A stretch of DNA of 30,744 bases from Candidatus Heimdallarchaeota archaeon (GTDB taxonomy: Archaea; Asgardarchaeota; Heimdallarchaeia; Heimdallarchaeales; Heimdallarchaeaceae): the NCBI GenBank assembly GCA_030668875.1, contig DAOVER010000034.1:1-30744 (forward strand). Direction: 5' to 3'. How positions within the stretch are numbered: position 1 is the stretch's first letter; every line of letters starts with the position of its first letter. The notes under the pieces are model-generated. The model was not told the origin of the DNA. It made no database searches and was given only the letters and a program-made list of their open reading frames with translations. The translations under genes and the position numbers were made by a program. Below are positions 2,870 through 11,824 of this stretch, piece after piece.

Positions 2870-3232
2870 TTGTTTACTGAAGAATTTATCATCGAAGAAG
2901 AACTTCATTTAGAAGAAGACGAAATTGAAGATATATACCAGTATCATGGTGCAGAGTATGATGAACTTCCCTTTAAAGAGTTCAAAGATTATGAGGGGGA
3001 GAATCATTCTGATTACCATTTAACTCTCTTCTTTGCACTATTGTTAGCTATTGTAGGTGCTGTTGTACTCGGTTTCTTAACTCCTCGAACTTACGGAGAA
3101 ACATTAATCAATATTTACTGGTGGACTCCTCTCATTGGAGGTTTGATTGGTGCTTTTCTAGGAGGTTTCATTGGTTTAGTGATAGATTCTCTAATTTATG
3201 CCAGATCCAAAGGTAATCAACAAACAGCATAG
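2870..3232 (+). CDS. Small membrane protein: acidic N-terminus plus two TM helices, unknown function
   Basis: 120 aa; very Glu/Asp-rich first 45 aa, then two hydrophobic segments (LFFALLLAIVGAVVLGFL; LIGGLIGAFLGGFIGLVI). TTG start. Confidence 0.7.
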   Translation: MFTEEFIIEEELHLEEDEIEDIYQYHGAEYDELPFKEFKDYEGENHSDYHLTLFFALLLAIVGAVVLGFLTPRTYGETLINIYWWTPLIGGLIGAFLGGFIGLVIDSLIYARSKGNQQTA

Positions 3233-3269
3233 ACATTATTACTATTGATACCTAACAATCAGTAATAAT

Positions 3270-4043
3270 TCATGTTTCTTTTGATGACATAATTAAGAAT
3301 CTATGACTCACATAGTCTATATATTCACTATCAGATATTATTGTATGAAGTTTAAACAGTTTATCTCTGTATTTTCCAACTGTGAATCCAGGCACTTCCC
3401 AAGGAACCGCCAACAGATAAAAAACAATTGCACCCACATCAAAAAATCGAGTTATTGGAAAACACTCTTTCTTCTTGAGAATCTTAAATCCATTATTTTC
3501 TAATTGATTTGCTGCGAAATCTGCAGTCCATTCTGGATAATCACTCACTTTATCATTAAGGAAAAATTCTCTTAAACCATCATCATTATGAGCTCCTACT
3601 TGCTGAGTTAGAAAAATACCTTCTTCTGAGAGTATTCTATGAACCTCAGAGGGAGAATAAGATTCATGTCTATTAATAATCAAATCAAATATGCCATCCT
3701 CAAAGGGCAGGTTTTCATCACCACTAATACCAACAATCTCTACGCCTAAAGATTCTAGTCTTTTTTTTGCAACTGGAACATTGGGGTCATGGGCTTCAGT
3801 GGCACATGTTTTTTCTGGAAAAGGTTGTAACATTGATAGAAGCTCTCCACCGCCTGTTCCCATATCAAGAAGAGAATTAACCTGCCTTAACACCGGTAAT
3901 ATCTCCGTTGTATAACTCCACTTTAATGGTGCTGTAACCATTCTGTCTTTAACATAGGAAAAATCCCATCCAAGAAAAGGTCTTTGAGCTTCTTCAATTA
4001 ATAGTTCAAATGTTTTTTTATGACTTCTAGAATCATTATCCAT
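3270..4043 (-). CDS. Class I SAM-dependent methyltransferase
   Basis: Motif I LLDMGTGGG; LPFEDGIFDLIINRH. Confidence 0.9.
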   Translation of the reverse strand: MDNDSRSHKKTFELLIEEAQRPFLGWDFSYVKDRMVTAPLKWSYTTEILPVLRQVNSLLDMGTGGGELLSMLQPFPEKTCATEAHDPNVPVAKKRLESLGVEIVGISGDENLPFEDGIFDLIINRHESYSPSEVHRILSEEGIFLTQQVGAHNDDGLREFFLNDKVSDYPEWTADFAANQLENNGFKILKKKECFPITRFFDVGAIVFYLLAVPWEVPGFTVGKYRDKLFKLHTIISDSEYIDYVSHRFLIMSSKET

Positions 4044-4149
4044 ATTACAAACTTGAAAGTCTCATTAATTATTTTTGTGGATGGAGAGACTATTTGTATG
4101 CATTCAAAAAGCAGTGACTTTATTGGAAAAAGATTAAGAAATTTTTACT

Positions 4150-4170
4150 AAAAAAATAGAAAGAAAAAAG
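4150..4170 (-). terminator. Oligo-T archaeal terminator after the superoxide reductase gene
   Basis: Minus strand reads CTTTTTTCTTTCTATTTTTTT just after the stop at 4178. Confidence 0.5.
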
Positions 4171-4177
4171 AGCATTT

Positions 4178-4561
4178 TTACTCTACTTTTACTTCTTTTT
4201 CATATTTCCAAAAACCGTGTATGTTACAATAAGATGTTGCAATAAGCTTTCCTGGTTTGTCAGTTTTTAATTGAAAAACTGCATAAGGTTCTGAATAAAC
4301 ACCGCTTGTATCAGGTCCTTTAATTGAAGCTCCATGAGCATCAAAATTGACTAGACCAACTTGATATGGGTATTTTTCGTCTTCTGGCCAGAACATTAGT
4401 TTTATCCAAGAAATATGATGTTCTGTTTTGTTAGGATGAGCAATTTCTTTTCCAACACTAACAGTTACAAGAGTTTTTTCTCCAGCTTTAATAACATCTG
4501 CAATTTCAATAACAGGTACATGTTTTTCTGTTTTCCAATCAGCTGTTCCATATAAATCCAT
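4178..4561 (-). CDS. Superoxide reductase (neelaredoxin / class II SORL, 1Fe-SOR)
   Basis: EKHVP, HPNKTEHHISWI and CNIHG iron-ligand motifs; GGTGA SD upstream. Confidence 0.92.
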   Translation of the reverse strand: MDLYGTADWKTEKHVPVIEIADVIKAGEKTLVTVSVGKEIAHPNKTEHHISWIKLMFWPEDEKYPYQVGLVNFDAHGASIKGPDTSGVYSEPYAVFQLKTDKPGKLIATSYCNIHGFWKYEKEVKVE

Positions 4562-4667
4562 ATGTACTCACCTAAGTCATTGGAACTACATCTATAAATA
4601 AATTTCTTGGAAGAACAAAATTCTACAAAATAGTGTTTAACAACAAAAGAAAGGGGAAAGAAAAATT

Positions 4668-5099
4668 CTAATCATCTTCAAGAACAGTAGGTTCAAGTGG
4701 GTAGGATTCCTTTGGTTGAGATGGTTGACCAGACTGATGAGCTGAAATATCACCTTCTATTTCATTCAATTCTTGCTCTAGTTTATCTATTTCGTCTTCA
4801 ACCTTTTTGATTCTTCTCTCAAACTCTCTTATCTTATATTCTTTTTCAGCAATATGTGCTTCTTTCTTCTTTGCTGCAACTTCACATTTGAAAGATTTAT
4901 CTATCAGTTCTTGCTGTTCAAAATCAATTTTCTTTAATAGCTGTTCTTCTCGTTCTCTATTATCACGAGCTTTCTTCTTCATTTGTTCAGCAATTTTTTT
5001 CTTCAAATCTTGCAAATCGCTTAGTTTTTTGAAAATATCTTCTTCTACATCATGCTTTTTCTCTAGAAGCTTAAAATATTGAACATTCGATTCACTCAT
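4668..5099 (-). CDS. Coiled-coil protein, unknown function
   Basis: 143 aa K/E-rich heptad-like sequence with a Pro/acidic C-terminal tail; own intergenic spacers on both sides. Confidence 0.75.
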   Translation of the reverse strand: MSESNVQYFKLLEKKHDVEEDIFKKLSDLQDLKKKIAEQMKKKARDNREREEQLLKKIDFEQQELIDKSFKCEVAAKKKEAHIAEKEYKIREFERRIKKVEDEIDKLEQELNEIEGDISAHQSGQPSQPKESYPLEPTVLEDD

Positions 5100-5286
5100 A
5101 TTAATCCAAACTATTAGGGGTAGCGCTTGTTTTTAAGGTTATAGAAATGAGGGTAAATGAGAGAAATCTATTAAATTATTAAAAGAAAAAATAGGACAAA
5201 TAAATGAAGATAGAAAAGAAAAATTTAAGAAGAAAAGCAATTGAAAGACAATAGGTGTAAGAGAAGTTCTCATACACCAAAAAAAT

Positions 5287-5410
5287 CGGGCCTTAGCTCA
5301 GTGGCTTAGAGCACCCGGCTGTAGTCAGAAGACACCCTTGTGATCAATGATCAAGGCGTCAGCCGGTGGTAACCGGGCGGTCCCGTGTTCAAATCACGGA
5401 GGCCCGACCA
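5287..5410 (+). tRNA. tRNA-Tyr(GTA) with 47-nt intron at 37/38 (5325-5371); CCA encoded
   Basis: Acceptor CGGGCCT (5287-93)/AGGCCCG (5400-06) with C1:G72; D-arm GCTC/GAGC; anticodon stem CCCGG/CCGGG with GTA at 5321-23; T-arm CCGTG-TTCAAAT-CACGG; 5-nt variable loop; A73 then CCA (5408-10). Confidence 0.96.
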
Positions 5411-5420
5411 TTCTCTTATT

Positions 5421-6179
5421 TTATTTGTTTTTCTTACCTATTGCTGTAAATACTGGTATGAAGATCATTCTTCTATTCTGCTCAATCAGTGTTTTCTCTT
5501 TTTCTACAATTTGTTTGAAATCTGTTTCTGTTATCAAGTTTGCTTCCAACACTCTCTTCCACTCTTCTTCTATGTTATTGATTAAAGATTCTTTATTCCA
5601 TGTTTGAGCAATCACAGAAATCTCAGTTTCTAGCCCTACGGTTTCAAAATAGGAGAGTATTTTTCTTCCAGCCAAAGGATCAGCACCTTCATCTCTTAGA
5701 TATTCAATATGTTTTGTACCAAGGTTCATTTCAGGGTACTCTACCCACCCTCCATAATCAGGTTCAGCTAATGCTACTACAAATCCTTGTTTTTTGCATA
5801 CTCTATAGATTTCGTTCATTGCTCTAATTGGATTTTTTACCCACAACAAAAGATATTGAAAAAGTATTATATCGAATTTGTTATCTTTCAAAGAAAGGTT
5901 TTCAACACTCTCCGCAAGAAATTCTACATTTTCAACTCTCTGCTTTGCTACTTCAATCATTCTTTCGTCTATATCGATAGCTGTTATCGCAGCAGATGTT
6001 CGATCTCTTAGTTCTTTCGTTATTGTGCCCATACCACAACCAATCTCTAAGATATTTTTTGCTTTGGTTAAACCTATCTTTTTGTAGATTTGATTGCGAA
6101 AAAAAAGGGTCCAAGATGCTTGACGTTCAAACTGTTCTTCTATTTCTGGACCCCAATTAACTCTTGATTTTTCATTCAT
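5421..6179 (-). CDS. Class I SAM-dependent methyltransferase, third gene of the radical SAM cluster
   Basis: ILEIGCGMG motif I, AIDID, ENLSLKDNKFDII. Start placed at ATG 6179 (MNEKSR) because the ORF-track extension to 6299 overlaps the radical SAM gene; 22 nt separate it from the rSAM stop. Confidence 0.88.
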   Translation of the reverse strand: MNEKSRVNWGPEIEEQFERQASWTLFFRNQIYKKIGLTKAKNILEIGCGMGTITKELRDRTSAAITAIDIDERMIEVAKQRVENVEFLAESVENLSLKDNKFDIILFQYLLLWVKNPIRAMNEIYRVCKKQGFVVALAEPDYGGWVEYPEMNLGTKHIEYLRDEGADPLAGRKILSYFETVGLETEISVIAQTWNKESLINNIEEEWKRVLEANLITETDFKQIVEKEKTLIEQNRRMIFIPVFTAIGKKNK

Positions 6180-6201
6180 TTGAGACACACATTTGACAAT
6201 G

Positions 6202-7509
6202 TTATGAGAAGGATTCTCTACAGATGGTAGTAGGAGCATCATAATTGAGAGGACATCCTCCTCCACAGATTTCCATTTCAGGACAATTAGTGCATTCATC
6301 GGGTAGATATTTCATATTCCTGAGACTTTTAGCAAGCTTGCTATTCCATATCTTTTTCCATTTTGTGTTCAGGATATTGCCTAGTGGCTCGAAATAGCTT
6401 TGACAAGGGAGAACCATACCATCGGGTTCTATTGCCATTGCAATATGAGCTGCTGTGCATTGTTTTAATCCTAATCCTTTCTCAATTGGATTAAAATCAC
6501 AATATCTTGTAGGGCTGTACCATAGGAAACTCATGTCTTTTTCTTCTGCTTTCTTCATTATCCTGCTAATGACATCATCTAGAGTTTCGACAGAGAGAGT
6601 GAAATCTTCATCTTTTCCGCCTCCAGATTTGATAATACCATTTGCAGCAAAATGGTCTATGCCTAGAGAATCGAGGAAATCTATTGTTTTCTCAATGTCC
6701 TTTATATTGTAAGGAGTTATGGTTGTATTTGTTAGGATATACACTGGAGTTGGAACAATGTTTTTTATTCCTTGGACAGTTTCCTTCCAAGCCCCTTTAA
6801 ATCCACAAAGTTCATCGTGAAGCTTCTCATCATGACTCTCAATTGTAATTTGGAAATGATCTATTCCAGCAGAAACTAGTTTGTCTACAAATTTCTTATC
6901 CTTGAACATCCTACCATTTGAGATTATTCCAGTGATAATACCTAAATCCTCAGCATATGCCACTAGTTCTGGTAAATCCTCCCTTAATGTTGGTTCTCCA
7001 CCAGTAAAAGTAACGTGAGGAACACCAATTTCCCACAAATTGTCTAATACTTGTCTCCATTCATCAGTTGTCAATTCGATAATTTCTCTCTTATGCTCAA
7101 CATAACATTTAGAACATTTGTTGTTGCATCTGTAGGTTAAGGCTAAATCCATGCGTAAGGGAGCTGAGAAAGGAGTTTCTAGTAGAGAACTGATATCTTG
7201 AGATAAGTGTTGCACAGGATCGATATCAGGTTTTGTTAAGAGATCCATAATCGATGTCTTGAAACCCACTAAATCGTCCATCAATTGAGTCTCATCTACA
7301 CGATATTTTCGTTTAACTTTGGAAACAATTTCCTCGTTGGTTTTTCCTTCAATTATCCCAGAAGCAAAATCTGTTGCAGTTCTGTTTAAGTGAAAAATTC
7401 GAGTAGCATTAACTAAGAGCAGACTATTTCCTTTTTTCTCTTTTCTTAAATGCATACGTGCAAAAGTATCAAGATTTCTTATATGGGACATTTTCTTTTC
7501 TCGCATCAT
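6202..7509 (-). CDS. Radical SAM enzyme with N-terminal PqqD/RRE-like domain and C-terminal SPASM domain (PqqE-like peptide maturase)
   Basis: CNNKCSKC (CX3CX2C), TGGEP; SPASM C-X12-G-X4-C...CX2CX5CX3C-X10-C. The N-terminal LLLVNATRIFHLNRTATDF...GKTNEEIVSKVKRKYRVD...DDLVGF has the PqqD/RRE pattern. Start at ATG 7509/7506 overlaps the upstream TGA, with a GGAGGTG SD; ATG 7491 is an alternative. Confidence 0.93.
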   Translation of the reverse strand: MMREKKMSHIRNLDTFARMHLRKEKKGNSLLLVNATRIFHLNRTATDFASGIIEGKTNEEIVSKVKRKYRVDETQLMDDLVGFKTSIMDLLTKPDIDPVQHLSQDISSLLETPFSAPLRMDLALTYRCNNKCSKCYVEHKREIIELTTDEWRQVLDNLWEIGVPHVTFTGGEPTLREDLPELVAYAEDLGIITGIISNGRMFKDKKFVDKLVSAGIDHFQITIESHDEKLHDELCGFKGAWKETVQGIKNIVPTPVYILTNTTITPYNIKDIEKTIDFLDSLGIDHFAANGIIKSGGGKDEDFTLSVETLDDVISRIMKKAEEKDMSFLWYSPTRYCDFNPIEKGLGLKQCTAAHIAMAIEPDGMVLPCQSYFEPLGNILNTKWKKIWNSKLAKSLRNMKYLPDECTNCPEMEICGGGCPLNYDAPTTICRESFS

Positions 7510-9236
7510 CTTCCACCTCCTGCACAAGCACAGGCACAAGCACAGGCACAAGCACATCCTCCTCCCCCACCTCCACCACCAGATCGACCACTACTTCTAG
7601 TAGCTGGTGGGCGTGTAACTTTTTGTAAAGCCTTTGTGAAGGTTTGTGGTTTATTAATAACTCCAGATAAGAGACTGTTTATCGGAGCTACATGCGAAGA
7701 TCCGGCATGTTGAGTAATTCTGAAGAAAGATCTTGAAGGAGTTTCAGAATATGAGCGACCAGTGTAGAAGTAATAATTTCGGACATACCAATGTGGGTAA
7801 TAATAACTACCACCACGTCTATCTAGTCTTTCCTCATATCCCTCATCGACCATAATCCAGAGAAATGCATCTTTTAATTCTGGAGCTGTTTTCTTCATCT
7901 CTTCCCACGATCTATCAATAATCTCCTCGTAATGCTTCTTTGTTCTTCTAACAGAGTATCCTTTCATTTTCTTTGATACACCTTTTATACGAGTGATAAG
8001 AGCTTTCTTTAGATCTGTTTGATGAACAGGTTCATGGGGGATGGTTCCAGAACTAGCACCTTTCTTCCATTTCTCATCTTCTTTATTTCTTTTCTTAATT
8101 CCAGCGATAAGCTGTTGTTGGTATTTTGGTAATTGCCTTTCAACTAGAGATTCTACAGTTACAGTAAATCTTAATGCAGGTTTAGTCTCTTTTATTTCTA
8201 AATATCCAAGTTTCATCATTTCAAAAAGCATCAATGTTGCTACTTGCGTTAGAGGTCTTTGTAAGAGAATCGCTACTTGCGAAGGAGTGAGATCTTTTTT
8301 CACACTACCACCAAGAGTTGTTACTATAGGGGGTAGATATTCCTTGCTCTTCCTTCTTTTTCGAAGTAAATAAAAAATAACAATCACAGCGACCACTGCA
8401 AAGAAGATTATAACATCTAAATTATTGTAAACTGTCAAACTCCAAAAAACACTGTGTACTTTTACATATTCTTCTGGGAGAGCAACAGCAGACATATATC
8501 CGTCATATGGAGAGCCTATGTCATTGAATTCAATATAGAGCCCAGGAGCATTAATACTAGCATCACTTAATTCAGCATCCACATAACTAGAAGTAGTTTC
8601 TCTTACGACTGCTTCATTTATATCAGTCAGCGTATCAGGAAAATGATATCTTACACGTTTTGCGGTATTTCCAGAAGTATAAACACCGGAAACCCCACCA
8701 AACCAAGTTTGCAAAAATACACACGAAGCAAAACCATCCTCACTATCAGGATATACCATCGCAGGATTATGACAGTATACTTCAAAAACTGCAGATTCAC
8801 CGGGATAAATATATCCAACATCTGTAAGCCAGATTTCAGCTGCAATCTCAACATATTCACTTTTCTTAATCCTTGAACTATCTATTTCTGTTCCATTTAA
8901 TTTTGCTGTAATAGAAGATAGTTGGTAATGATTATTTGGAAATCCAACATCAATAACATCTATTGGTTGATAACCACTTAGACAGTTAAATTCCATTTCA
9001 TAGTAGATATCTATGGAACCATCTTCAAGGATGTATATGTCTGTATATATATATGACATTTCAAATCCATAAGCACCCAAGGTAATTGTTCCATCATCAT
9101 CAAGGTCTTTTGCTAAACCAGCTCCAGATACAATAAAAATTGATATGAATATAGAACAGCTCACAATCATTAGTAATTTTGATCTCAATTTTTTAACTCC
9201 CCTATTTTTTCTCAAAGTATATCTATAATATGTCAA
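7506..9236 (-). CDS. DUF2207-like single-pass membrane protein with C-terminal G7-(CA)6-GGGR Cys-rich tail
   Basis: Signal peptide, about 230-aa exported domain, one TM helix (VIIFFAVVAVIVIFYLL) followed by RKRRKSK, then DUF2207-like LTPSQVAILL...LMLFEMMKLGYLEIKE and a Tyr/Ser/Gly-rich end. TTG 9188 with an upstream GGAG is a plausible alternative start. Confidence 0.85.
   Translation of the reverse strand: MTYYRYTLRKNRGVKKLRSKLLMIVSCSIFISIFIVSGAGLAKDLDDDGTITLGAYGFEMSYIYTDIYILEDGSIDIYYEMEFNCLSGYQPIDVIDVGFPNNHYQLSSITAKLNGTEIDSSRIKKSEYVEIAAEIWLTDVGYIYPGESAVFEVYCHNPAMVYPDSEDGFASCVFLQTWFGGVSGVYTSGNTAKRVRYHFPDTLTDINEAVVRETTSSYVDAELSDASINAPGLYIEFNDIGSPYDGYMSAVALPEEYVKVHSVFWSLTVYNNLDVIIFFAVVAVIVIFYLLRKRRKSKEYLPPIVTTLGGSVKKDLTPSQVAILLQRPLTQVATLMLFEMMKLGYLEIKETKPALRFTVTVESLVERQLPKYQQQLIAGIKKRNKEDEKWKKGASSGTIPHEPVHQTDLKKALITRIKGVSKKMKGYSVRRTKKHYEEIIDRSWEEMKKTAPELKDAFLWIMVDEGYEERLDRRGGSYYYPHWYVRNYYFYTGRSYSETPSRSFFRITQHAGSSHVAPINSLLSGVINKPQTFTKALQKVTRPPATRSSGRSGGGGGGGGCACACACACACAGGGR
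7521..7556 (-). repeat. Coding tandem repeat, 3 x 12 bp (TGTGCTTGTGCC/A) encoding (Cys-Ala)6
   Basis: Read directly: six TGT Cys codons alternate with GCT/GCC/GCT/GCC/GCT/GCA. Confidence 0.95.
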
Positions 9237-9268
9237 ATCATTGTTGAAGGTAATAATTAAAGTTATTG

Positions 9269-9283
9269 CATAAATATTTTCGA
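9269..9283 (-). promoter_or_regulatory. Possible BRE/TATA promoter of the membrane protein-rSAM-methyltransferase cluster
   Basis: Minus strand reads CGAAAATATTTATGC about 35 nt upstream of ATG 9236. Confidence 0.3.
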
Positions 9284-9432
9284 CTGTTAGGATTTATTAC
9301 ACTCAAATAATTACACCAATTATTAAGGGGTTGGAAACTTTACTCAATTGCACGAGAAGAACGCATTGTTCGAACTGGAGATAAATGTGAATATGTCTGG
9401 AGTGTAGCTCAAAAACCAGAACAAAATGAGCA

Positions 9433-10350
9433 TTATTTATTCTTTATAGTCCTTTCACCTTTTACTAGTTTCTTTTTACCTTTCTTCGTTGCAGGTGATT
9501 TCTTGATTCTATAAATGATTCTTTGGATATCTTTCTGTACTTCAATTTCTATCTTAATTCCGCTACTTTTAGTTCTCTCCTTCCATTGATAACTGATTAA
9601 ATCAATGTACTCCTTTTCAGTCATTTTCTTAACAGTTGTTAATGATTCTAATGCTTCAAGTTCTCTAAATCCATCAAAAATAACCTCATAAGAGCCACTT
9701 TTTTTCATAATGACACCTTTCCACCCTTCCACATTTGCCCCCATAACAGCTATATAGGAGATATATTTGAAGGGTCCCTCAAGAAAACCAAATAAATTAT
9801 CAACTTCTTCAAGAAACTCTGTTTTGTCATTAAACAAGGTTTTGGCTTTTTGCTTCCCACTATCCTCTTTTACTTTCATATACATTTTATTTATGAGATC
9901 AACTTTTCTTATAGCTAACATAAATCCCCTCCATTTTTCATCCAGCCTTGGAATCTCCGTTCTTTCTCTTCGAGTTTCCTCATATATTGGCACAGTCATG
10001 GAATTAATGCTGAATATCACTAGTTTTTGAAATTCATTTTTTGGATGTTTGAGAGTCCAAGTAATGTCCATAGTTTCAATTGGAGAGATTCGTGTCGAAC
10101 TATGAATACGAATCCTACCGTCTTCGAGTTTTTTGATGAAACGTGGATATACCCTGAACTTTGCCATTGTATTTTGGAAATTTGCTATAATCATACTAAG
10201 GAAAGCTTGAATCACACCTTCCAAACCATCTCCCTCAAGCAAAGTTTCAATTTCCCATTGCCTTTTTTCATTTACCACAGATTCAAGTGATAACAAAAAT
10301 TGGTTGATTAACTCAAGTTCATTTTCTGAAATATTAACTGTTTGAACCAT
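9433..10350 (-). CDS. Hypothetical soluble protein with basic C-terminal tail
   Basis: 305-aa ORF, no recognisable motif; ends KKSPATKKGKKKLVKGERTIKNK. Confidence 0.8.
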   Translation of the reverse strand: MVQTVNISENELELINQFLLSLESVVNEKRQWEIETLLEGDGLEGVIQAFLSMIIANFQNTMAKFRVYPRFIKKLEDGRIRIHSSTRISPIETMDITWTLKHPKNEFQKLVIFSINSMTVPIYEETRRERTEIPRLDEKWRGFMLAIRKVDLINKMYMKVKEDSGKQKAKTLFNDKTEFLEEVDNLFGFLEGPFKYISYIAVMGANVEGWKGVIMKKSGSYEVIFDGFRELEALESLTTVKKMTEKEYIDLISYQWKERTKSSGIKIEIEVQKDIQRIIYRIKKSPATKKGKKKLVKGERTIKNK

Positions 10351-10458
10351 AATAACCAGCAGAGTATATTATTATATCAAATTCTCATGGAGCCTATATG
10401 TGTTTTTGCATTTAAAAAAATGAAGCAAAAGCGAAAAAAGGAAGAGTATTAAGTTACA

Positions 10459-11184
10459 TTAGAAGAATAAGTGTTCTTCATCTTTAGCCTTTTTCTTTTT
10501 CTTTCTTACTCTTCGCTTTTTCTTATTAGTTTTCTCCAATTCCTCTCTTGTAATTGATAATATTGGTTCCTTGATGCCTAAGTCCTCATCAAGTATTTCT
10601 GCTATCTTTTTCATTGTCTGATAAAATAGTTGTTTCATTTTACTTTTTGTTTCTCTCTTATATACACGTTTTAGTGTTTCCAAAGACTCTGAGTCAGCGT
10701 AATTAATTATAATGTTCAGTGACATTTGAATAGGGAAAACAGCTTTATCATTTTGAATTATTTCAAGAAGTAATTCTCTTATTTTATCTTTTTTTAATTT
10801 TCCTCGTTCATGTAATTTACGAATTGCCATTGAACGAATAACATCATTTTCATCCTCTTTGGATATTCTGATTAGAAAATCTTCGATTTTTGGAGAAGAC
10901 ATATCACCGATCACTTCAGCTAACACAAGTTTAATGCTATTTTCTCTTTCGTACGCATAAAACTCCATTAGCTTTTGTGCAATTTCTTTCTTCTTAGTAT
11001 CCTTTAGAATAAAAATAGCTTTAATTCTAATCCTCTCATATTTTTCCTTCTCAAAAACTTTGATAAGGAATTCCAGGATATTTTCATCAATTTCTTGTTC
11101 CGATATCGAAACAAGCTCTTCCAACTTCATCTTATCAGTAAGGTTATTGAATTTTTTCAGTTTCTTCTCCAATTTTGGATTCAT
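10459..11184 (-). CDS. HEAT/armadillo-type helical repeat protein
   Basis: Recurrent E...IR..AI..L pattern (ERIRIKAIFIL, ENSIKLVLAEVI, DVIRSMAIRKL); Lys/Arg-rich C-terminal tail. Confidence 0.8.
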   Translation of the reverse strand: MNPKLEKKLKKFNNLTDKMKLEELVSISEQEIDENILEFLIKVFEKEKYERIRIKAIFILKDTKKKEIAQKLMEFYAYERENSIKLVLAEVIGDMSSPKIEDFLIRISKEDENDVIRSMAIRKLHERGKLKKDKIRELLLEIIQNDKAVFPIQMSLNIIINYADSESLETLKRVYKRETKSKMKQLFYQTMKKIAEILDEDLGIKEPILSITREELEKTNKKKRRVRKKKKKAKDEEHLFF

Positions 11185-11269
11185 TGTATTTAGTAAGTGC
11201 TTTGCTTCTTTTAAGGTTGCTCAATTTTTGAGGTTTTTATAAGATTATGAAGAGAGATAATGAAGACAT

Positions 11270-11824
11270 TTGACTACGATGCTAGACGAAAATAAACAGA
11301 GTCATGAGGGTTATGCTATTGTTTATTTTGCTGAAAGTGGTTTTGAATTATTTGCATCTGATCTTGCTGATCTTAAATTAGAGATTACTCTGACAAACTA
11401 TCCTACATTAATGGGGATGATGCAAAATCAGAGCATAGAAGGTTTAGCTTCCTCAAAAATTAATAACAACGCGTTTCTTTTTGCTTATGCTTTGAACTTG
11501 AAAAACTTAAATGCAAAAGATTCCCGCTTGCAACATAAAACAGTAACAATTGTCAATTTTGTAGTCTCACGAGAGCTATACAAAGAACTTATCGTAAACT
11601 TCGATGATTTTGAACAATTCTTGGAAACCTATTTTCAACCCATCAAATTTCTTTTTGATCTTTATGCAGTCGACTTTACTAAAGTAATACCTATCTTTCA
11701 AGAGAGACAACGTATAATAGAAAAAACCAAAGAAAGAAACAAAAGAGATGGAGAAAATTCCTTAGCTATGGAATTTAACAGTTGGCTGAAATCAGCTGAT
11801 TTTTCCCAAGAAAAAAATAAGTGA
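11270..11824 (+). CDS. Hypothetical protein, possible longin/uDENN-like fold
   Basis: 184 aa with YAIVYF...G.EL at the N-terminus and FAYALNLKNLNAKDSRL..TVTIVNFVV. The fold call is inference. ATG 11279 is an alternative start. Confidence 0.6.
   Translation: MTTMLDENKQSHEGYAIVYFAESGFELFASDLADLKLEITLTNYPTLMGMMQNQSIEGLASSKINNNAFLFAYALNLKNLNAKDSRLQHKTVTIVNFVVSRELYKELIVNFDDFEQFLETYFQPIKFLFDLYAVDFTKVIPIFQERQRIIEKTKERNKRDGENSLAMEFNSWLKSADFSQEKNK

Follow-up and report, generated by a model that had tools for sequence, protein, structure and literature searches.

Radical S-adenosylmethionine (SAM) enzymes that carry both a SPASM domain and a recognition element (RRE) for peptides that are ribosomally synthesised and modified after translation (RiPPs) are known for tailoring small peptides, which are later cleaved and exported. 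The question raised by the locus described here is why the gene of such an enzyme should stand directly behind that of a large membrane protein ending in a run of alternating Cys and Ala. The locus belongs to Candidatus Heimdallarchaeota archaeon (assembly GCA_030668875.1), in which positions 1 to 30,744 of contig DAOVER010000034.1 were analysed (hereafter the window, 30,744 nucleotides), and comprises g1, encoding the membrane protein, g2, encoding the RRE/radical SAM/SPASM enzyme, and g3, encoding a SAM-dependent methyltransferase. A first-pass annotation had read the three genes as a radical SAM modification system acting on the tail of the membrane protein, and this reading is supported genomically, the chemistry itself being inferred. 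On balance, g1, g2 and g3 seem to form one operon for a protein-borne, RiPP-like maturation, and the cassette probably marks an as yet unknown modification made on a whole protein.

The evidence that carries this reading is the linkage between tail and enzyme, which holds across both prokaryotic domains and on which three seeds agree. Such an association, with an RRE-radical SAM-SPASM gene adjacent to each tail, was what the first-pass annotation had proposed to look for, and it was recovered from the tail, from the enzyme and from a g1 profile that leaves the tail out. Of the outcomes named there as speaking against the reading, the two open to sequence analysis (tails or enzymes occurring mostly apart, and an N-terminal domain other than an RRE) both failed to appear. 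For the first seed, CACACAGGGR plus a stop codon was written as a degenerate DNA pattern, which matched at least 119 stretches in species-representative genomes; it fixes the last ten residues, and variants of the tail are visible only through the other two seeds. The matches listed fall mostly in Anaerolineae and other Chloroflexota, with further carriers among Methanomassiliicoccales and other Thermoplasmatota, Planctomycetota, Heimdall- and Hodarchaeota, Aminicenantes, Hydrogenedentes, Fermentibacterota and more, and include the cultured Ornatilinea apprima P3M-1 as well as the complete Ca. Heimdallarchaeum aukensis chromosome. Among the 74 loci judged, which are those with at least 600 nt downstream of the tail, an ortholog of g2 (31-77% identity) starts no more than 400 nt past the tail stop codon in 56, and a g3-like methyltransferase is present in 32. 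In six further loci, whose g1 homologs form a second group set apart by its pre-tail segment, the order is enzyme(s), tail protein, methyltransferase. Searching with an alignment of g2 yielded 80 loci at 43-95% identity and added Bathyarchaeia, Hermodarchaeota, Coatesbacteria, Nitrospirales, Zixibacteria, Cloacimonadota and Actinomycetota; five of these loci were not judgeable, and 65 of the other 75 have an open reading frame (ORF) with a Cys-x repeat tail near the enzyme gene; in 60 of them it ends immediately upstream of that gene, in two it lies just downstream, and in three it is found on the same strand but further upstream.

The third seed, a g1 profile from which the last 35 residues had been removed, was run against 1.84 billion proteins, among which 1247 representatives reached E<=0.001. 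In the best 150, a Cys-x repeat tail closes at least 127 sequences (123 by regular expression and four by eye). Of the 23 others, about 16 break off within the conserved cytoplasmic or transmembrane region and look C-terminally cut, and seven may be tail-less or frameshifted. Even where g1 homologs are distant (24-28% identity), a radical SAM/SPASM gene lies directly downstream in two of three loci, the third being cut at a contig end. Some genomes hold two tail proteins and one enzyme (L033; L069 and L121), which fits an enzyme that recognises the tail as a module.

Within the genus of the window genome, whose loci are not independent of each other, g1 was found in 21 of 23 other genomes searched, whereas this query found no g1 in 16 genomes from the order's other genera. 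The distribution of g2 orthologs (E below 1e-96) coincides with that of g1 genome by genome, the two congeners lacking g1 being also without g2, and genomes of the other genera hold distant radical SAM proteins only (E 9e-32 or weaker). In the 40 relatives taken together, tail protein and enzyme ortholog are both present in 22 and both not found in 18, and neither ever occurs singly. All 20 of the congeneric loci fetched have the genes in the order g1-g2-g3 as far as the contig reaches, with the g1/g2 overlap retained as 1 or 4 nt in all congeners and g3 following g2 in every locus with enough sequence; g2, at 71-95% identity, is far more conserved than g1, at 48-91%. The complete chromosome of Ca. 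Heimdallarchaeum aukensis carries the system, as do 21 congeneric genomes, and it is therefore Asgard-encoded and not a binning artefact. An enzyme tree in which the Asgard sequences group together (SH-aLRT 96) beside Thermoplasmatota, with the Chloroflexota as one group (95), likewise argues against recent transfer or bin contamination.

The tail itself reads GGG-(CA)6-GGGR in 20 genomes of the genus and has (CA)5 in one. Among 20 congeners, 14 of the 16 tail codons vary synonymously with zero amino-acid changes, so constraint acts on the peptide rather than on the DNA repeat, and the tail, as judged from its codons, is under purifying selection at the protein level with its repeat number fixed. 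The tail is also not a product of chance, because g1 is the one place in the 3.2-Mb genome (92% complete) where three or more Cys-Ala codon pairs stand in a row, as against zero control matches; the same genome holds one ortholog-grade copy of g2 alongside this one tail. Across phyla, variation is confined to the one or two residues at the centre and to the last few. The form (CA)6 is found in this genus and in Thermoplasmatota, (CA)3-G-(CA)3 in Hodarchaeota and others, (CA)4-G-(CA)3 in most Chloroflexota, (CA)3-G-(CA)4 in the second group of g1 homologs, and (CA)3-C-V-S-(CA)3 followed by GGGAR or HGGAR in Bathyarchaeia (loci among L184-L236).

The three genes all lie on the minus strand and, as first annotated, run in the same direction, the ATG of g2 overlapping the g1 stop codon as ATGA and a gap of 22 nt separating the g2 stop from the start of g3 (Table 1). 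The 576 aa originally given for g1 hold for its longest ORF (7506-9236, TTG start); the TTG at 9188, which sits 7 nt past AGGGGAG, is the more plausible start because congeneric homologs begin there, and the protein then has 560 aa. Its C-terminal (CA)6-GGGR was correctly read, with (Cys-Ala)6 at 7521-7556 and GGGR at 7509-7520, while the Gly run before it, reported as seven residues, has eight (7557-7580). The earlier statement that no separate precursor, protease or exporter is visible nearby also stands: no short Cys-rich ORF was found in the intergenic DNA of 3000-11500, nor any PqqA-like ORF nearby, and Pfam returned no protease or transporter/exporter family among eight neighbouring ORFs scanned (3270-11184). 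The neighbouring ORFs 4668-5099 and 9433-10350 have no Pfam match at all. The sole Cys-rich candidate substrate near g2 is thus the end of the 560-aa g1 and not the product of a short (<100 aa) precursor gene. No RNA run is among the sequencing runs listed as containing 5421-9236, which are DNA from marine sediments and cold seeps, four of them possibly from the source sample.

Table 1. Features of the g1-g2-g3 locus, with positions in the window.
Feature	Position	Strand	Description	Basis
g1	7506..9188	-	560-aa membrane protein with C-terminal Cys-Ala tail, candidate substrate	ORF, ribosome-binding site, TTG start common to homologs
g2	6202..7509	-	RRE / radical SAM / SPASM enzyme, 435 aa	Pfam, structure model, Foldseek
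g3	5421..6179	-	class I SAM-dependent methyltransferase, 252 aa, accessory cassette member	Pfam
g1/g2 junction	7506..7509	-	ATGA stop/start overlap (translational coupling)	sequence
g1 residues 38-241	8466..9077	-	extracytoplasmic beta-sandwich	AlphaFold2 model, pLDDT mostly above 90
g1 residues 257-281	8346..8420	-	single transmembrane helix, then RKRRKSK (positive-inside)	helix in model; sequence
g1 residues 302-525	7614..8285	-	cytoplasmic winged-helix-like and helical domain	model secondary structure
T-x-P motif of g1 (T525, P527)	7608..7616	-	candidate recognition segment, ~19 residues before first Cys	alignments
Gly8 spacer of g1	7557..7580	-		sequence
(Cys-Ala)6-Gly-Gly-Gly-Arg tail of g1	7509..7556	-	candidate modified core	invariance in congeners; disordered in model
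g2 residues ~7-92	7234..7491	-	RRE (PqqD-like)	PF05402, model
CX3CX2C of g2	7105..7128	-	radical SAM cluster motif, then invariant Tyr	C129, C133, C136, Y137 invariant
SPASM domain of g2	6280..6459	-	CX12GX4C ... CX2CX5CX3C	PF13186, invariant Cys columns

An AlphaFold2 model of g1 (predicted local distance difference test, pLDDT, 81) consists of an N-terminal helix, a beta-sandwich, one transmembrane helix, as the first-pass annotation had it, a winged-helix-like unit, a helical domain and a low-confidence stretch at 532-560, the tail region being disordered with pLDDT below 50. Since RKRRKSK follows directly on the transmembrane helix, the C-terminal half is assigned to the cytoplasm, and the tail is predicted to lie there, within reach of an Fe-S enzyme. 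In two alignments of g1 homologs, which cover Asgard, Thermoplasmatota, Chloroflexota and others, the Pro of the T-x-P motif is invariant and the Thr at least 90% conserved, making this segment a candidate recognition site for the RRE of g2; the spacer that follows varies among homologs in length and in Gly/Ser composition. Judged by these alignments, the sequence of T-x-P segment, variable Gly/Ser spacer and invariant core resembles the leader/core layout of a RiPP precursor.

The description of g1 as DUF2207-like has some support at the level of fold and none at that of family. Pfam gave no family for g1 at E<=0.01 and none for ten of its homologs at E<=0.1, and NCBIfam gave none for g1, but DUF2207 proteins (PF09972/PF20990) may share with it the outside beta-sandwich, the transmembrane helix and the cytoplasmic helical domain. 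An ESM-Atlas cluster consisting entirely (100%) of DUF2207 plus DUF2207_C proteins aligns with g1 at a TM-score of 0.50 over 394 residues spanning 38-516, and the cytoplasmic part has a language-model feature similarity of 0.90-0.94 to DUF2207_C clusters, which is a lead only. The best solved match of the sandwich is residues 227-446 of yeast Ost1 (Z 15.6, root-mean-square deviation (rmsd) 2.8, 179 aligned), followed by both lumenal domains of human ribophorin I (Z 13 to ~14, rmsd about 3 A) and, below these, by the N-domains of M1 aminopeptidases (Z ~11). We take the matched chains to be the membrane-proximal lumenal domain of Ost1 and ribophorin I of the OST complex. Like these proteins, g1 has an outside sandwich that continues into a transmembrane helix, but it has no Pfam Ribophorin_I match, and the modelled resemblance is a fold-level likeness only.

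The enzyme encoded by g2 carries the features of an RRE-dependent radical SAM/SPASM maturase, namely a CX3CX2C motif in a partial TIM barrel, the SPASM Cys pattern and an RRE. Pfam recognises the radical SAM domain (PF04055, E 4.6e-27), the SPASM domain (PF13186, E 3.8e-11) and, above its cut-off, PqqD (PF05402, 26.1 bits against 23.4). The structure model (pLDDT 86.5; predicted template modelling score 0.89) has four strands followed by three helices at residues 8-93, which is the RRE layout, and the barrel and SPASM region after it. In 43 orthologs C129, C133, C136 and Y137 are invariant, as is an H-L-R triplet in the RRE. Foldseek placed SkfB (6EFN, TM-scores 0.65/0.73) and SuiB (5V1T, 0.70 over 463 columns, RRE included) first, with PqqE, BlsE, CteB and anSME as further structural neighbours, and a profile search of PDB sequences ranked SkfB (E 1.1e-30) and PqqE first. 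On the modelled structure, g2 is built like the leader-binding RiPP maturases, its nearest relatives in this respect being SkfB and SuiB. Two of the claims first made for the enzyme and its partner, an N-terminal RRE and a SAM methyltransferase in g3, are borne out by the full-length alignment with SkfB and SuiB and by a Methyltransf_11 match (PF08241, E 2.4e-23) respectively; a third, that of seven Cys in the SPASM domain, applies to those conserved across the family, the region in g2 holding eight. The g3 protein has a Rossmann-type SAM-binding domain, and the PDB chains nearest to it are generic class I enzymes including, over the core only, the RiPP methyltransferases LahSB and BamL.

From these observations a mechanism can be proposed. 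The g1 protein would be a type I membrane protein with its beta-sandwich outside and, beyond the transmembrane helix, a cytoplasmic domain that leads through a disordered linker into the likewise cytoplasmic tail. Its partner g2, translated in coupling with it, would most likely dock through its RRE on the conserved pre-tail segment and apply 5'-deoxyadenosyl radical chemistry to the tail. The chemistry favoured here is the formation of sactionine-type thioethers, from Cys sulfur to the alpha-carbon of Ala or Gly, which would fold the tail into a cross-linked hairpin or ladder. It is favoured because the nearest solved enzyme is the sactisynthase SkfB, because the Tyr after CX3CX2C and the Thr in F-T-G-G-E are shared by g2 with SkfB and StsB (Y113 and F146/T147 of StsB; PqqE and SuiB differ there), and because StsB joins CxCxC to GxGxG as a hairpin of three Cys-to-Gly alpha-thioethers (PMC10288494). 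The tail would probably also receive at least one methyl group from g3, and the product would most likely stay on g1, as suggested by the lack of a protease or exporter in the loci whose neighbours were annotated. The end point, which we put forward tentatively, would be a covalently cross-linked and possibly methylated structure kept on the protein. It would give a DUF2207/ribophorin-I-like protein a structural knot, or a prosthetic group of a new kind derived from the protein itself, at its cytoplasmic end. A predicted complex in which g2 was combined with SAM, three 4Fe-4S clusters and the 85 C-terminal residues of g1 scored 0.16, where the mark is 0.32, and speaks neither for nor against binding.

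Several observations weigh against this reading. Tail-bearing g1 homologs at L047, L069 and L073 have no enzyme within the fetched flanks, although the genome of L069 holds a complete cassette on another contig (L121). Conversely, ten of the 75 judgeable enzyme-seeded loci have no tail gene beside the enzyme; in three of five such genomes checked the tail pattern occurs elsewhere, with no control matches, and in the other two, which may be incomplete, the exact pattern was not found. The methyltransferase is lacking in many loci and hence falls outside the core. No named NCBIfam family passes its cut-off with g2, so that the reaction cannot be read from homology, and from the group 1 sactisynthase active-site profile (PMC10288494) two of six positions could be placed in g2, both matching, which makes sactionine-type chemistry a weak inference. 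An alternating Cys-x-Cys run is also a classic ligand pattern for metals and Fe-S clusters, and all that is said here of tail chemistry derives from genes and models.

The alternative that fares best keeps the tail as substrate and changes the reaction. In a rather unlikely but serious version of events, g2 would modify the tail by non-thioether chemistry, whether by epimerising alternate residues as YydG and PoyD do, by oxidising the Cys beta-carbon as anSME does, or by forming new C-C or C-S links. The strict alternation of residues suits an alternate-residue chemistry, anSME is among the structural neighbours, and g2 stays under the cut-off of every sactisynthase model, scoring 113.9 bits with SkfB TIGR04403 (cut-off 300), 74.5 with AlbA NF012164 (850) and 88.7 with StsB NF045574 (625). 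The highest NCBIfam scores are those of NirJ2 and PqqE at ~142 bits (PqqE TIGR02109, 141.6 against 381.35), AhbD and MftC scoring too. Against such chemistry stand the closeness of g2 to SkfB in both sequence and fold and the absence from the tail of C-x-(P/A)-x-R, the motif that anSME uses.

The main rival to modification as such is that the C-x-C repeat merely binds a metal or an Fe-S cluster, or relays sulfur, without being covalently altered, g2 being a functional partner that, for example, shares or receives the cluster, or else acting on another substrate. All tail variants hold six or seven Cys spaced C-x-C and symmetric about a short variable centre (A-G, V-S or nothing), an arrangement that could pair cysteines, and the carriers are anaerobes rich in Fe-S proteins, with AOR, POR and desulfoferrodoxin genes in the window itself. 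Ligation of this simple kind, however, does not call for Ala positions and a GGGR end that are as invariant as the Cys. The translational coupling of g1 to g2 also speaks against it, as does an enzyme that keeps a peptide-recognition RRE together with a full CX3CX2C throughout its 43 orthologs, and metal binding alone is judged unlikely.

It is likewise improbable, and judged a little more so, that g1 is a giant scaffold or leader whose tail, once modified, is cleaved away to yield a small free cofactor or peptide in the manner of PQQ or mycofactocin. PqqE does have one of the best NCBIfam scores and MftC a lower one, below NirJ2, AhbD, SkfB and others, and in being conserved almost without exception the core resembles a cofactor precursor more than an antibiotic RiPP. 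The rest of g1, though, is a folded and conserved three-domain protein rather than a dispensable leader, and no protease, peptidase or exporter occurs in the window or in the few other loci annotated, neighbours not having been tabulated across all loci. That the adjacency is functionless or the tail a slippage-prone DNA repeat with no role in the protein is very improbable, for although a short hexanucleotide-like repeat does encode it, its repeat number is fixed while synonymous sites vary freely, and the linkage recurs in both domains of life from all three seeds.

The composition of the cassette around tail and enzyme varies between lineages. No g3-like gene is present in six Thermoplasmatota-group loci (five so labelled and L100, a metagenome assembly placed with them by the enzyme tree), which leaves the tail protein and the enzyme as the core of the system. 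At L033:4252-8331 (+), two g1 homologs of 554 and 776 aa, both Cys-Ala-tailed and the longer with its outer domain duplicated, stand in tandem before a single enzyme gene. In most Chloroflexota loci the enzyme is directly followed by a paralog ~30-34% identical to g2 (e.g. L098:2121-3278 (-)), in which the RRE and barrel persist but CX3CX2C and all the SPASM Cys are gone (a total of 0-4 Cys); the CX2CX5CX3C block is retained by the paralog of Planctomycetota-type loci, and a search of the Heimdall genome with the Ornatilinea copy returned g2 alone. Bacterial loci also have, just upstream of the tail protein, a conserved protein of ~122 aa (L098:6440-6811 (-); L033:3787-4155 (+)) with two N-terminal hydrophobic helices and a zinc-ribbon-like CxxC...CxxC end, which tblastn did not find in the window. 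A sister group of the enzyme in Anaerolineae (L208, L230, L232 and L248), 45-48% identical to g2, follows tandem SIMPL/DUF541 genes with no tail protein; the methyltransferase still follows the enzyme at L208, the one of these loci annotated, and of the two genomes checked that of L208 has the tail pattern elsewhere and that of L232 does not. The SIMPL/DUF541 proteins were considered as alternative substrates and set aside, their C-terminus being the mere end of the SIMPL domain.

After the operon (window 4178-5099 (-)) come genes for a coiled-coil protein of 143 aa and for a desulfoferrodoxin of the superoxide reductase type, both syntenic in 17 congeneric loci, and a HEAT protein is syntenic upstream of the operon in the genus. 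As cassette members these three were rejected, the synteny being judged to reflect vertical inheritance within one genus and the genes being absent from the few distant loci annotated. Convergent to g3 and ending 10 nt from its stop codon lies an intron-containing tRNA gene (window 5287-5410 (+)), detected only by intron-aware ARAGORN, as tRNA-Asn(GTT) with a 47-nt intron at 36/37; default ARAGORN and Rfam reported no tRNA at 5100-5500, and the same DNA can be read by eye as tRNA-Tyr(GTA) with its intron at the canonical 37/38 site.

Neither CACACAGGGR nor ACACAGGGR occurs as a tail string in the roughly 8.4 million papers and preprints searched, in which there was also no paper combining DUF2207 or ACGX with radical SAM and nothing relevant on radical SAM/SPASM enzymes with membrane-protein tails or on RiPPs of Asgard archaea or Anaerolineae. 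None of the precedents known to us for a radical SAM enzyme acting on a whole protein concerns a membrane protein or a repeat tail. What sets this system apart is that RiPP-type radical SAM machinery is tied to the C-terminal 16-19 residues of a large membrane protein and that this tail is almost letter-for-letter identical between bacteria and archaea. Were the tail modified in place, the cassette would represent a widespread, unnamed protein modification of anaerobes and would extend RiPP logic to whole proteins; were the product an attached cross-linked structure, it would be the first known case of radical SAM 'RiPP' chemistry on a full-length membrane protein, common to anaerobes from many phyla, among them the eukaryotes' Asgard relatives. 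The system is experimentally accessible, with a short substrate fragment, simple expected mass changes and at least one cultured carrier in O. apprima P3M-1.

Among known systems, SkfB with its substrate SkfA (6EFN) shares with g2 the RRE, the radical SAM domain, a C-terminal auxiliary-cluster domain, the Tyr after CX3CX2C, T-G-G-E and a Cys-containing substrate, whereas SkfA is a short secreted peptide and the candidate substrate here the end of a 560-aa membrane protein. PqqE, the second-best PDB match, likewise combines radical SAM/SPASM with a PqqD-type RRE and a highly conserved substrate, but has Ser where g2 has Tyr and Thr, and PqqA is a short peptide in which a Glu-Tyr C-C bond is made. 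The anSME enzymes are SPASM radical SAM proteins that modify a Cys in full-length proteins, the sulfatases, within a C-x-(P/A)-x-R motif inside a folded enzyme, and they have no RRE. The radical SAM/SPASM enzyme of the ACGX system (TIGR04340, where g2 reaches 72.3 bits and the cut-off is 400) is named for a Cys-containing short-repeat peptide; its target is a short peptide with an Ala-Cys-Gly-x repeat and not the tail of a membrane protein. Compared with all of these, the system described here would work like an RRE-dependent RiPP maturase but departs from it in having no short precursor gene. The closest likeness in the substrate is offered by StsA/StsB/StsC (PMC10288494), where the core is also an alternating CxCxC and the active-site-proximal Tyr and Thr match those of g2, but where the RRE is a separate protein and the precursor a small peptide; the g1 tail has no GxGxG block, and its acceptors could only be Ala or GGG. 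For a product that stays attached, the precedent is QhpD, a radical SAM enzyme that forms intra-chain crosslinks in QhpC, the gamma subunit of quinohemoprotein amine dehydrogenase, which are kept in the mature protein (PMC7876137). QhpC differs from g1 in being small and soluble, in having links from Cys to Asp/Glu and in acquiring a quinone cofactor later; neither a repeat tail nor a membrane protein is involved.

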